Assembly: GCA_021108075.1 (NCBI GenBank)
Contig: JAIORP010000100.1
Location: 7,783-71,782 of the forward strand
Length of the DNA: 64,000 bases
Source of the DNA: Candidatus Omnitrophota bacterium
GTDB taxonomy: Bacteria; Omnitrophota; Gorgyraeia; Zapsychrales; Zapsychraceae
Direction: 5' to 3'
Shown: piece by piece, positions 46,622 through 49,900 of the stretch
How positions within the stretch are numbered: position 1 is the first letter of the stretch
Layout: the number at the start of each line of letters is the position of its first letter
Made by a program: the position numbers and the translations under genes
Notes under the pieces: model-generated
Database searches by the model: none
The model's input: the letters and a program-made list of their open reading frames with translations, nothing else
Told to the model about the DNA's origin: nothing

Positions 46622-48214
46622 ATGAAAAACAAACAGTTTTTTATTGAATGCTTCATCCTGCTCCTCATCCTTTTGCTTTCATCAGGGCATTCCTGCTACG
46701 CGAACAATCTAAACATTACGAATGTAACCTTAACGGAGAGAAACCCTTCTGCCGGAACGGTCGTGGTTGAATTTGATGTGTCCTGGGAGAATTCCTGGCG
46801 CACAAAAATTAACCACGATGCCGTATGGTTAACTGTCCGTTTATATAAATCCACCGTAACTCCCACCAATAAAATTCTCTCTCCTCTAACCGAAAGTGGT
46901 TTGAACCCTCAAGGCATATATACAGGTTCAACATCCCAAGTTGAGCTTTATGTCCCTGCTGATAAATGGGGGGTATTTATCCGGCCTGCAGCTTATGGAA
47001 AATTTTCAACGATTACGGCTGAGGCTGTTCAGCTGACCATTGATTACGGAACAGCTGGATTTAGTTCTTCAGATGATGTTTATGTTAGTCTCATGGGTGT
47101 CGAAATGGTTCTGGTTCCTTCAGGGACTTTTTTTGCGGGTGATTTTGATTCCAGTACGGCAGCCCTCGACCAGGGAACGGCAGATTCTGATCCCTGGGTG
47201 ATCTCCAATGATTTGATGATTAATGTGACAAATCCCAGTAACAACGGTTATCGGTATGTGTCCAATAATAATCCGGGTGAAGATCCTACGGGCGCCACCT
47301 TTACGATCAGTTCCGCGTTTCCTGTTGGCTATTATGCATTTTATGTTATGAAGTATGAAATCACGGAAGGGCAATGGATCGAATTCATCAATGCGTTACC
47401 ATCAAATAGCGCCCGACTGAACAGGGATATAACGGATAGTGCCCATAAGAACACGGACAGCGTGATTAATCGAAATACCGTCACTTGCTCCGGCTCGCCA
47501 CTTTCTTGTTCGTCATCCCGTCCGAACAGATCGTTGAGTTTTATAACTTGGATGGATTTAGCTTCTTTTTTAGATTGGATGGCATTGCGACCCATGAGTG
47601 AACTTGAATTCGAGAAATTATCCCGGGGACCTTTGTTGGCTGAGACCTCAGAGTTTGCCTGGGGCGACACGAACATCACTTCAGCGACGACGATTTCTGC
47701 TGGTGATGAGGTTGGCAACGAAACAATTACAACAACAGGAGCAAATGCCCATTTTAACAACATGACCCTAACAGGTGGCGACACCGGCTATGGAACGGGA
47801 TACACCCAGGGGCCGTTACGTGGCGGTATTTTTGCGACAGGCCAGTCCACACGGGAAACGTCAGGAGCCACATATTACGGCGTTTTAGATGTCTCCGGGA
47901 ATTTAAGAGAACGTGTTGTTACGTTCGGCAATGCCAGTGGGCGGTTATTCGACGGCAGCCATGGCGATGGTGACTTGACAACCGTGAGCGGTTATGAAGG
48001 TAATGCTACGAACAGCGACTGGCCGGGAATGGACACGAATACGGCACGCGGAGTTACCGGTGCGAATGGCTCTGGTTTTCGTGGAGGCGCTTGGGATTCT
48101 CAGTCGAGTGGTGACTTATTAAGAGTTTCTGACCGGACAGAGGCAGCCTTGTCGACGACATCCGCTTTTAATAATGCCGGCGGCCGCGGCGTAAGGACTT
48201 ACGAAGGTGAATAA
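46622..48214 (+). CDS. Secreted FGE-sulfatase/SUMF1-domain protein, paralog 1
   Basis: Signal peptide. SWENSWRT motif. C-terminal SUMF1-like core ([31 protein letters not shown]...[12 protein letters not shown]). AGAGGTGAT RBS. Confidence 0.6.
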   Translation: [530 protein letters not shown]

Positions 48215-48217
48215 AAA

Positions 48218-49900
48218 ATGAAAAAGAAAATTTGCGAACAAACTTATCACGGGTTCAGAACGCGAGCACAAAGAACAGTTAATTTTTTTATTTTTTTGTT
48301 CGTTTCTATTTGTTTTGTTCCGTTGATGGCAAGGGCCAACAATTTAATCATTGAGGGCTTTGAAGTCGACAGCATCGATACAGCAGCCAACACGATCACA
48401 TATGTTTGCGATGTCTCCTGGGACAACAGTTGGAGGACGACGACAAACAACGATTCCGTCTGGGTTTTTTTGAAATATTCAACCGATGCCGGAGTGAATT
48501 GGGATCATGCCAGCATGTCCTTAAGTGGAACAGACCCAATGGGTTTTGCCCCTCCTGTTGATTTTGAAGTTGTTGTTCCGAATGATGAGAAAGGGTTCTT
48601 TTTGCAACGAACAGATTTAAGTTCAGGCAGTGTGAGCGCGGAAGGTGTCAAGTTTGTGTGGGACTATGCCCAGGACGGATTATCTGATGATGAGGCAACG
48701 GCTTCGAATACGATTAACAAAATTTTTGGAATTGAAATGGTTTACATCCCTGAGGGGTCTTTTAGCGCGGGAGATAGCAGCAGTTCTTCGGAGTATCCCT
48801 TTAAACAAGGTTCCGCTGATAGTGACCCTTGGTATATCCAGGGCGAGGAATCGATTACAACAGCAAATGTGGTCAGCGATGGATATTATTACCAGAGTGC
48901 CGGCGTGACGGGCGAGAATGCCAGTGGGGATGTCTTTCTTATTTCAACATCATTTCCCAAGGGGTACCGGTCTTTTTACATAATGAAATATGAGTTAACA
49001 GAAGGTCAATGGACAAGTTTTTTTAATTCTTTGAGCCATGCGGCAAAAACAAACCGTGACATAACGGGTTTTCAGGAAGGCGGAAAGAATTCTGACAGCG
49101 TCGTGGATAGAAATACGATAAGTTGGGATCATGTGGACGTCAAATCTATCGCGACCACACAAAGGCCGGATCGGCCGGTAACATACATTTCCTGGACCGA
49201 CCTGATGGCTTATGCCGATTGGGCAGGCTTACGGCCGATGACCGAATTGGAATATGAAAAAGCCGCTCGTGGCGTTGATATTTCTGCTGTGCCGAATGAG
49301 TTCGCCTGGGGCACGGCATCGTATAACACCGCGGAATCATCAGAGATATATCCAAATGGCGATGAAGATGGAACGGAACAGATTTTTGATGGAGCTGCAA
49401 ACATCAACAGAAACAGTTTAGGCTGGACTTCCGGTGATGGCCGCGCGGGAGGTATTGCTGTGGGGCAGAAAGGTCCTGTGCGCGCGGGTATTTTTGCTGA
49501 AAGTTCAACAAACAGGGAAACGAGTGGCGCTTCTTTCTATGGTGTGATGGAGTTGTCCGGGAATTTATACGAAATGTGCGTTACCGTCGGGAGAATAGAA
49601 GGACGCCAATATTTAGGCACACATGGAGACGGCCGGTTGTCATCGGTTTCCGGTTATGAGGGAAACGCAACAAATACGGATTGGCCGGGTATCAATACAT
49701 CCGATTCCGCAAGAGGAATCACCGGAACTCTCGGGTCAGGTTATAGAGGCGGGGATTTCCAATCGGTGAGTTCATTGCATTTTCAAGTTTCAAATCGAAC
49801 ATTAGCAGTAAGGGATGCCGATACAGGAGGTTTTCAGGAGCGGTATGACGCAACTGCCGGAGTTTATCAAGGAGGTCGATTGGTCCGAACAGCACCGTAA
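48218..49900 (+). CDS. Secreted FGE-sulfatase/SUMF1-domain protein, paralog 2
   Basis: Signal peptide. SWDNSWRT motif. [32 protein letters not shown] and [12 protein letters not shown] motifs. Same domain order as paralog 1. Confidence 0.6.
   Translation: [560 protein letters not shown]

Follow-up and report, generated by a model that had tools for sequence, protein, structure and literature searches.

We analyzed a 64,000-nucleotide stretch from a Candidatus Omnitrophota bacterium (GenBank assembly GCA_021108075.1, contig JAIORP010000100.1, positions 7,783 to 71,782 of the forward strand; hereafter the window, whose numbering is used throughout), in which two adjacent genes, FGE1 and FGE2, encode secreted proteins with a domain of the formylglycine-generating enzyme (FGE)/SUMF1 fold and lie directly upstream of a gene for a giant repeat protein. 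Both products carry an export signal and have lost the catalytic residues of FGE, the pair is kept in strict synteny with the giant gene across Omnitrophota, and relatives in Bacteroidota co-occur with secreted partners that bear a glycine-rich aromatic motif. FGE1 and FGE2 are best explained as Sec-exported, soluble, non-catalytic proteins of the FGE (C-type-lectin-like) fold, and as an ancient, non-redundant paralog pair that would supply dedicated accessory factors to a single conserved Omnitrophota envelope machine. Our leading but tentative proposal for what they do, which we give a probability of roughly 0.45, is that they are non-catalytic docking or handling factors that recognize the glycine-rich motif of the giant protein.

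Fold family and catalytic residues of FGE1 and FGE2

46622..48214, + strand: FGE1, 530 aa, with a signal peptide (aa 1-27), a beta-sandwich N-terminal domain (aa 28-~167) and a Cys-less FGE-like domain (aa ~160-530)
48218..49900, + strand: FGE2, 560 aa, with a signal peptide (aa 1-40), a beta-sandwich N-terminal domain (aa 41-~180) and a Cys-less FGE-like domain
48338..48757, + strand: 'SWxNSWR' beta-sandwich domain of FGE2 (FGE1 counterpart at 46703-47122)

The two proteins are full-length paralogs with 41% identity over 549 columns (BLASTP, E = 1e-118), and their genes, which are separated by 3 nt in the window, abut or overlap across loci. An initial annotation of this DNA had described two paralogous secreted FGE-domain proteins directly 5′ of a giant gene, and this description proved exact in its coordinates, with the giant gene starting 113 nt past FGE2. 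The signal peptide and the SW(E/D)NSWRT motif that it ascribed to both proteins are present as well, the motif as VSWENSWRT at aa 53-61 of FGE1 and as VSWDNSWRT at aa 66-74 of FGE2, and the hallmarks of the FGE/SUMF1 fold that it quoted for the C-terminal domain, a 29-residue stretch and SGNLYE, are those of FGE2 (aa 324-352 and aa 447-452). In a Pfam scan both proteins exceeded the PF03781 gathering score of 23.3 bits, FGE1 with 31.7 bits (E = 1.6e-7) and FGE2 with 74.6 bits (E = 1.3e-20), and on sequence grounds we assign both to the PF03781 superfamily.

Judged by eye, the signal sequences of FGE1 and FGE2 consist of basic residues and a hydrophobic core followed by a cleavage site (CYA↓NN or ARA↓NN). 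The cleavage consensus in 49 relatives is AxA↓NNLxI, with A40, N41 and L43 invariant or nearly so. FGE2 has a 100% match to a protein from a Candidatus Omnitrophica metagenome-assembled genome, and its other relatives are 53-81% identical. Relative to canonical FGE, FGE2 contains three loop expansions (aa 187-250, 366-438 and 457-505), whose conservation of 0.73-0.76 compares with 0.75-0.86 for the core. An AlphaFold2 (AF2) model of FGE2 gave an all-beta sandwich for the N-terminal domain with a predicted local distance difference test score (pLDDT) of >90. No Pfam model matches this 'SWxNSWR' domain, which invariably comes joined to an FGE-like domain, and a fold search returned only weak matches to beta-sandwich, adhesin and pilin structures (9ifr, E = 4e-3).

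A profile built from 49 family sequences matched PDB chains of FGE, CalU17, SUMF2 and EgtB, the best match being FGE (E = 3e-9). The profile alignment pairs 'GGSFLCheSYCNRYRVAART' of T. curvata FGE with 'GGdfqs..ssirafqvstrt' of the family and places Ser and Ile/Leu at the catalytic Cys positions, although this C-terminal segment does not have a significant score by itself and the pairing of the cysteines is indicative only. Family alignments of 21 and of 49 sequences contain no conserved Cys column, and the cysteines of the mature proteins (Cys289 and Cys296 in FGE1, Cys64 and Cys454 in FGE2) have no position in common. The initial annotation had named intact catalytic residues with sulfatase genes nearby as the outcome that would speak against it and had noted that the window holds no sulfatase. 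We found no sulfatase in the window, either with PF00884 in Pfam scans of nearly all + strand open reading frames (ORFs) of at least 150 aa or in a six-frame search for the signature C/S-x-P-x-R, which gave zero matches. The only NCBIfam matches at E ≤ 0.01 were EgtB and SenA, at ~30 bits against cut-offs of 360-420 and over the shared FGE core only; the DinB-like iron-binding domain of the EgtB/OvoA/SenA enzymes is absent, the equivalog models are not matched over their full length, and we do not place FGE1 and FGE2 among these enzymes.

FGE1 and FGE2 thus share PF03781 with FGE/SUMF1 and with SUMF2/pFGE, and share with FGE the structural motifs MVxIP, KYExT, SW.D..AY..W.G.RLPTE.E(W/Y)E.A.RG, GN..E and RGG. 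The Cys pair is absent from SUMF2 and from FGE1 and FGE2 alike. In contrast to FGE/SUMF1, the pair has neither the catalytic cysteines nor a sulfatase context, adds the three conserved loop expansions and an N-terminal domain, and is linked to a secretion and fibre locus. The PF03781 matches and the automatic database names could be taken to mean that FGE1 and FGE2 are ordinary FGEs that mature sulfatases encoded elsewhere in the genome, which we consider very improbable: the catalytic Cys pair is missing, the family conserves no Cys at all, the window holds no detectable sulfatase, and in about 55 species the linkage is instead with a secretin system and a giant repeat gene. We rejected ordinary FGE function on the replaced Cys pair and on the lack of a sulfatase signature in the window, and the two proteins are predicted not to be catalytic FGEs. 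Because the catalytic cysteines are replaced, no sulfatase was found and the EgtB and SenA scores fall far below their cut-offs, the public names of relatives ('formylglycine-generating enzyme family protein' and 'SUMF1/EgtB/PvdO family nonheme iron enzyme') are misleading; they fit the fold and not the function.

Conserved locus and motif-bearing partners

A scan of a genome collection returned 79 loci. In about 55 Omnitrophota species the genes keep the order family 2 glycosyltransferase (GT2), ExeA-like ATPase (in a subset), T2SSC-like protein, secretin, tetratricopeptide repeat (TPR) protein, FGE1, FGE2 and giant. The members next to the pair in the window are as follows.

42392-43297, + strand: ExeA/GspA/MshM-like AAA_22 ATPase, present only in a subset of species
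43350-43979, + strand: T2SSC-like protein of 209 aa
43960..45552, + strand: secretin (PF00263, Secretin_N, STN; closest to the PilQ, GspD and MshL models, all below cut-offs)
45585..46469, + strand: TPR protein (MshN-, PilW- or Tgl-like), between the secretin and FGE1
50014..64000, + strand: giant secreted protein with a signal peptide (aa 1-36), an N-terminal region of ~280 aa and then NW units; incomplete at the window end
50122..50202, + strand: first residues of the mature giant protein, which hold two glycine-rich aromatic motifs (QYTGGSYGGDEES ... DIYTGGSQDD) and form the element putatively recognized by FGE1 and FGE2

The giants of these roughly 55 species follow FGE2 directly and share the N-terminal region and INW repeats, so the linkage to giant genes in relatives on which the initial annotation depended holds across the phylum. 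Orthology follows position without exception, the upstream copy matching FGE1 (49-63% identity) and the downstream copy FGE2 (53-81%); the duplication is therefore older than the sampled radiation, and both copies have been retained. One divergent Omnitrophota variant (L059 8038-19795, RIFCSPLOWO2_12_FULL_44_17) encodes just one FGE-like protein, which shares 37% identity with FGE2, and its giant carries a single N-terminal motif (AAIYTGGSGSGY) rather than the usual two. The Omnitrophota-specific locus also appears on contigs labelled 'uncultured Planctomycetales', 'Elusimicrobia' or 'Candidatus Saccharibacteria' (L007, L009, L010, L021, L052, L061 and others), labels that are probably taxonomic mislabels or binning errors.

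Many contigs end within the giant repeat gene, and the continuity of the whole locus was assembled from overlapping locus sets, namely one genome locus that spans the end of the giant (L041) and many metagenome contigs. In L041 a complete giant of 868 aa, a length that may reflect assembly collapse, is followed by a 435-aa protein (p435) and then by F-type ATPase genes (14197-20923). With a signal peptide and a C-terminal membrane helix p435 is bitopic, and it has no Pfam match. A metagenome scan with p435 as the query gave zero matches, and a scan with the ATPase alpha subunit gave 53 loci (L085-L137, e.g. L115 8685-20600). All of the metagenome loci with enough upstream DNA show INW repeats, the C-terminal domain of the giant, p435 and then the ATPase operon, and all with enough downstream DNA continue with GspE (MshEN domain), GspF, usually a peptidase-MA protein, and GspG-type pseudopilins. 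The ATPase operon has the unusual order alpha, epsilon, c, a 76-aa protein, b/delta, gamma and beta, and no subunit a was identified in the related loci.

The FGE pair, the giant, p435 and the ATPase therefore form a cassette that lies between the outer-membrane half (ExeA-like ATPase, secretin and TPR protein) and the inner-membrane half (GspE/F/G) of a type II secretion system (T2SS)/mannose-sensitive haemagglutinin (MSHA)-like system, in agreement with the secretin-type system that had been proposed for this genome. The flanks resemble MSHA-type and T2SS clusters (MshL-MshM-MshN...MshE-MshG-pilins; GspD/E/F/G; ExeA/ExeB) in the secretin, the ExeA/MshM-like ATPase and the TPR protein on one side and in GspE with MshEN, GspF and the GspG-type pseudopilins on the other. 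The Omnitrophota locus differs from these clusters in carrying the inserted FGE pair, giant, p435 and complete F-type ATPase operon, and we know of no MSHA or T2SS cluster with such an inserted cassette.

The mature giant of the window begins AQYTGG...IYTGG, and all Omnitrophota giants begin AQ[YF][ST]GG...I[YF]xGG. A loose form of this motif occurs within the first 110 aa of the downstream ORF at 41 of 52 Omnitrophota loci, compared with 7 of 1271 other ORFs (0.55%). A similar association was found outside the phylum. At the 50% identity level, 1,585 clusters matched a profile of the N-terminal domain. The matched proteins almost always have a length of 500-600 aa and the match at residues ~25-170, and PF03781 was present in all ten of the longer members checked (10/10). 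The combination of a signal peptide, an 'SWxNSWR' beta-sandwich and a Cys-less FGE-like domain defines an unnamed two-domain family. Its full-length Bacteroidota homologs (31-37% identity) have the same AxA↓NN site, the SWENSWR motif and a C-terminal GGRxVRTAP; cultured hosts include Neolewinella, Lewinella, Mariniflexile fucanivorans, Algibacter sp. L1A34 and Hyunsoonleella.

The secretin and the INW giant are absent from the Bacteroidota loci, where the next gene encodes a protein with the C-terminal domain (CTD) of type IX secretion system (T9SS) cargo and a mature start of AQYVGG..., AQNFQGGNDDGF or AQFNGGSGDGF. These partners carry 4-9 tandem [LF][YF]xGGxGDG[FY] units after the mature N-terminus, and the loose motif lies within the first 110 aa of the downstream ORF at 9 of 15 Bacteroidota-group loci, compared with 10 of 313 other ORFs (3.2%). 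Because the motif is enriched in both phyla, the constant feature of the partner is a glycine-rich aromatic motif on a secreted protein, whichever system exports it. We rejected a 1:1 rule between FGE paralogs and motif copies, which fits Omnitrophota (2:2, and 1:1 in L059) but fails in Bacteroidota, where one gene faces 4-9 copies. Two further Bacteroidota loci (L080 9986-21033 and L083 8204-16605) encode fused multi-FGE proteins of 1,473 and 1,027 aa, the genes of which lie directly 5′ of those for very large proteins (>2,172 and >1,757 aa, respectively, running off the locus).

A docking role and its alternatives

In the mechanism that we propose, the peptide-binding groove of the FGE fold would have lost its catalytic Cys pair, been remodelled by the three loop expansions and been fused to the N-terminal beta-sandwich. 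The remodelled groove would bind the glycine-rich aromatic motif with which the mature giant begins (QYTGG...IYTGG), with QYTGGSYGGDEESSLGNDIYTGGSQDD as the candidate ligand peptide. FGE1 and FGE2, probably as a heteromer, would act on the fibre in the periplasm or on the cell surface, where they would hold, pilot, cap or anchor it, and the machine that they serve would comprise the T2SS/MSHA-like secretin system, the giant 13-residue-repeat fibre, the 435-aa bitopic membrane protein and the atypical F-type ATPase. Within this scheme we infer direct binding to the giant, the heteromeric state and the cellular location. We propose docking because the fold is kept while FGE chemistry is lost, the proteins are exported, their loops are conserved, PorK provides a precedent and the partners bear the motif. 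The cryo-EM structure of PorK shows a Cys-less FGE fold in which the groove that once held substrate, together with the insertions, has become a hub for protein docking (PMC12421860). The single-FGE locus with a single-motif giant adds an anecdotal point in favor of docking. The suggestion in the initial annotation that the pair has a role for the giant protein rather than in sulfatase maturation is supported by the computational evidence, and that role may be one of anchor, chaperone or modifier.

Several results weigh against docking. For the FGE domain AF2 gave only a patchy model, with a mean pLDDT of 69 and loops <50, and a Foldseek search recovered neither an FGE nor a PorK structure. 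The Bacteroidota partner has a T9SS CTD and the FGE-like protein does not; the latter may thus have a transient periplasmic action instead of remaining bound. One FGE-like gene against up to 9 motif copies in a partner suits an enzyme and its substrate equally well, and identities of 60-80% across the phylum together with invariant polar residues (for example the HGDG motif, E343/E345/E347 and R422/R433) are enzyme-like too.

The main rival explanation is a new enzymatic modification, in which FGE1 and FGE2 would carry out non-FGE chemistry on the glycine-rich aromatic motif of the partner in the periplasm before export. The FGE superfamily is rich in enzymes, the HGDG motif is specific to this family, the tandem copies in Bacteroidota partners look like possible substrates, and the Bacteroidota proteins, lacking a CTD, probably remain in the periplasm while the partner leaves. 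Nevertheless, FGE1 and FGE2 lack a Cys pair to bind Cu(I) and also lack the DinB domain in which EgtB, OvoA and SenA hold their iron, the EgtB and SenA scores are as low as described above, we found no cofactor-binding signature, and no accessory redox genes are conserved in the locus. We regard this enzyme explanation as unlikely, though as the strongest competitor of docking.

It is also possible, if quite unlikely, that FGE1 and FGE2 are lectin-like adhesin heads, which the T2SS, or in Bacteroidota the T9SS, would co-export as folded passengers and which would bind host or prey glycans from their place on the fibre. The FGE fold is a C-type-lectin-like fold, the N-terminal domain weakly resembles beta-sandwiches of adhesins, pilins and carbohydrate-binding modules (the 9ifr match above), folded proteins are exported by both the T2SS and the T9SS, and Omnitrophota are thought to be epibionts or predators. 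Adhesins, however, usually diverge fast, whereas few genes of the locus are as conserved as the FGE pair (53-81% identity), and no carbohydrate-binding signature was found. The lectin explanation also overlaps with docking, as docking to the N-terminus of the giant would still be required.

A close published parallel is with the gliding and T9SS machinery of Bacteroidota, where GldJ and GldK form a paralog pair in the gliding track (PMC12635249). Like FGE1 and FGE2, PorK, GldK and GldJ have a Cys-less FGE-like fold that has been remodelled by insertions and serves as a docking scaffold (PMC12421860, PMC12635249), and they are tied to a secretion machine and a giant repetitive adhesin (SprB), as the FGE pair is to the giant. 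The differences are that FGE1 and FGE2 have a signal-peptidase-I site (AxA↓NN) and no lipobox Cys in our by-eye reading, that they have an extra N-terminal beta-sandwich, that the Omnitrophota machine is secretin/T2SS-like and not a T9SS, and that Bacteroidota members of the FGE1/FGE2 family are separate from GldJ/K and are paired with small T9SS cargo proteins. The GldJ and GldK NCBIfam models gave no match at E ≤ 0.01, their presence in the library not having been confirmed by a positive control, and PorK was not among the PDB sequences matched by the family profile at E ≤ 10, with the same limit on the presence of its chains. Partner genes of the PorN/GldN or PorLM/GldLM kind do not occur at the locus. 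Because there is no lipobox, no specific model match, no detected PorK and no PorN or GldLM, FGE1 and FGE2 are best classed from sequence outside the GldJ/GldK/PorK group. The parallel with GldJ and GldK drawn in the initial annotation consequently stands for the fold and the logic, but not for lipoprotein status or specific sequence similarity.

A stronger version of this parallel would make FGE1 and FGE2 the equivalent of GldJ/GldK/PorK, a polymerizing periplasmic hub or track through which a motor (the T2SS ATPase, the F-type ATPase or both) would drive the giant fibre in gliding-like motility or in reeling in prey. The FGE pair, giant fibre, p435, F-type ATPase and split T2SS/MSHA-like system would then together be an unrecognized motor-driven surface apparatus for gliding, reeling or prey capture. 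In support of this, the pair is paralogous and Cys-less with conserved insertions, as in GldJ/GldK (PMC12421860, PMC12635249), its neighbours include a repetitive surface protein of giant size and a type 2/3 ('symbiotic') F-type ATPase, and a chemotaxis cluster lies in the same window. Seymour et al. 2023 reported such 'symbiotic' type-2/3 F-type ATPases beside type IVa pilus (T4aP) clusters in all Omnitrophota classes and likened them to the Mycoplasma gliding motor (PMC10066038). The locus described here is of the same kind, with an F-type ATPase co-located with type IV pilus/T2SS genes; it differs in that the main text of that study is silent on the FGE-like pair, on the secretin and on the INW-repeat giant gene (PMC10066038), and in that the ATPase here includes the c subunit. 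The likeness to the Mycoplasma mobile gliding machinery, an F1-like ATPase with giant surface proteins, is one of analogy. On the other side, the AxA↓NN cleavage site and the missing lipobox indicate that FGE1 and FGE2 are not lipoproteins, there is no GldJ, GldK or PorK match and no PorN/GldN- or GldLM-like gene, and true GldJ/K systems are found alongside the Bacteroidota homologs, whose partners are small T9SS cargo proteins rather than machinery genes. We therefore consider a hub or track of this kind, and the motor-driven apparatus built around it, improbable. If it were true, two phyla that differ in their secretion systems would both have recruited the FGE fold, independently or from an ancient module common to them, as the coupling between motors and giant adhesins.

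PF03781-type and C-type-lectin folds are common targets of diversity-generating retroelements, but the idea that FGE1 and FGE2 are variable proteins of such an element was rejected as having next to no probability, as neither a template-like DNA repeat of 46622-49900 elsewhere in the window nor a reverse transcriptase among the window ORFs scanned with Pfam was found, and the C-termini are highly conserved and not hypervariable.

The giant repeat gene, the wider window and implications

The giant gene has its ATG at 50014 and runs for 4,662 codons without a stop to the end of the window. Its product contains 332 NW units, 327 of which are spaced exactly 13 aa, with the repeat unit A-G-[IV]-N-W-x-D-[IL]-x-x-[LM]-[ST]-x, in which N and W are invariant and G and D nearly so. 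As the DNA copies match at only about 65-70%, the array is old and constrained at the protein level. The units show a weak 26-aa super-period (unit identity 0.625 at lag 2 vs 0.58 at lag 1), and N-W-S/T sequons are present in many of them. An AF2 repeat model, made from a pseudo-alignment of 75 in-register segments, has one short helix per 13-aa unit at a pLDDT of 46 and is unreliable. Pfam matches on the giant protein (Ntox33, Lysostaphin_N, Radical_SAM and others) were rejected as artefacts of repeats or composition, leaving 0 significant stretches, and its N-terminal region used as a homolog query returned 3 partial proteins only. A promoter and terminator scan gave no signal above shuffled expectation and no terminator in the gap between FGE2 and the giant. 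The GC skew reaches 0.3-0.4 over the repeat region, and two minus-strand ORFs (51801-58460, 2,219 aa, and 60489-63281, 930 aa) are shadow ORFs of the array and not genes.

Upstream of the secretin module, an S41 (C-terminal processing) peptidase gene and a conserved GT2/DUF2304/methyltransferase/GT2 block (38182-42318, + strand) are syntenic in distant species (L001 and many other loci). The block consists of four genes.

39492-40226, + strand: GT2
40254-40604, + strand: DUF2304 protein
40606-41286, + strand: methyltransferase
41311-42318, + strand: second GT2

This block may represent a lipid-linked sugar pathway, which would hint at glycosylation of the product of the locus. Farther upstream, 20-35 kb from the secretin/FGE/giant locus, are a complete chemosensory cluster at 12891-24948 on the + strand (CBS protein, CheW, CheW-receiver, MCP, CheR, CheB, CheA and CheC-like) and a gene for a PilZ-domain protein at 9197-9673 (+); a chemosensory system would fit the control of a motility or attachment apparatus. 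At the start of the window, Pfam matched none of five consecutive + strand ORFs (73-6369; 511, 156, 461, 232 and 556 aa) at E ≤ 1e-5.

We found no description of the FGE1/FGE2 pair in the literature searched, nor any work there that combines Omnitrophota with formylglycine, and neither FGE nor formylglycine is mentioned in West-Roberts 2023, Seymour 2023 or a 2026 complete-genome preprint. The locus that West-Roberts et al. describe upstream of their giant genes differs from this one (gspD/E/F, rcpC, rotamase).

Omnitrophota are abundant, uncultured and ultra-small bacteria. Their 'symbiotic' F-type ATPase/type IV pilus loci and their giant genes have been noted before, but the mechanism has not; what is new here is an invariant, non-catalytic pair of FGE-fold proteins and a very regular giant repeat protein at the center of a largely undescribed Omnitrophota locus. 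Cultured Bacteroidota (Algibacter, Mariniflexile and Neolewinella) hold the same two-gene module, so that its function could be tested without culturing Omnitrophota. The pair extends a theme known from PorK, GldK and GldJ, in which envelope machines reuse the FGE fold for docking.

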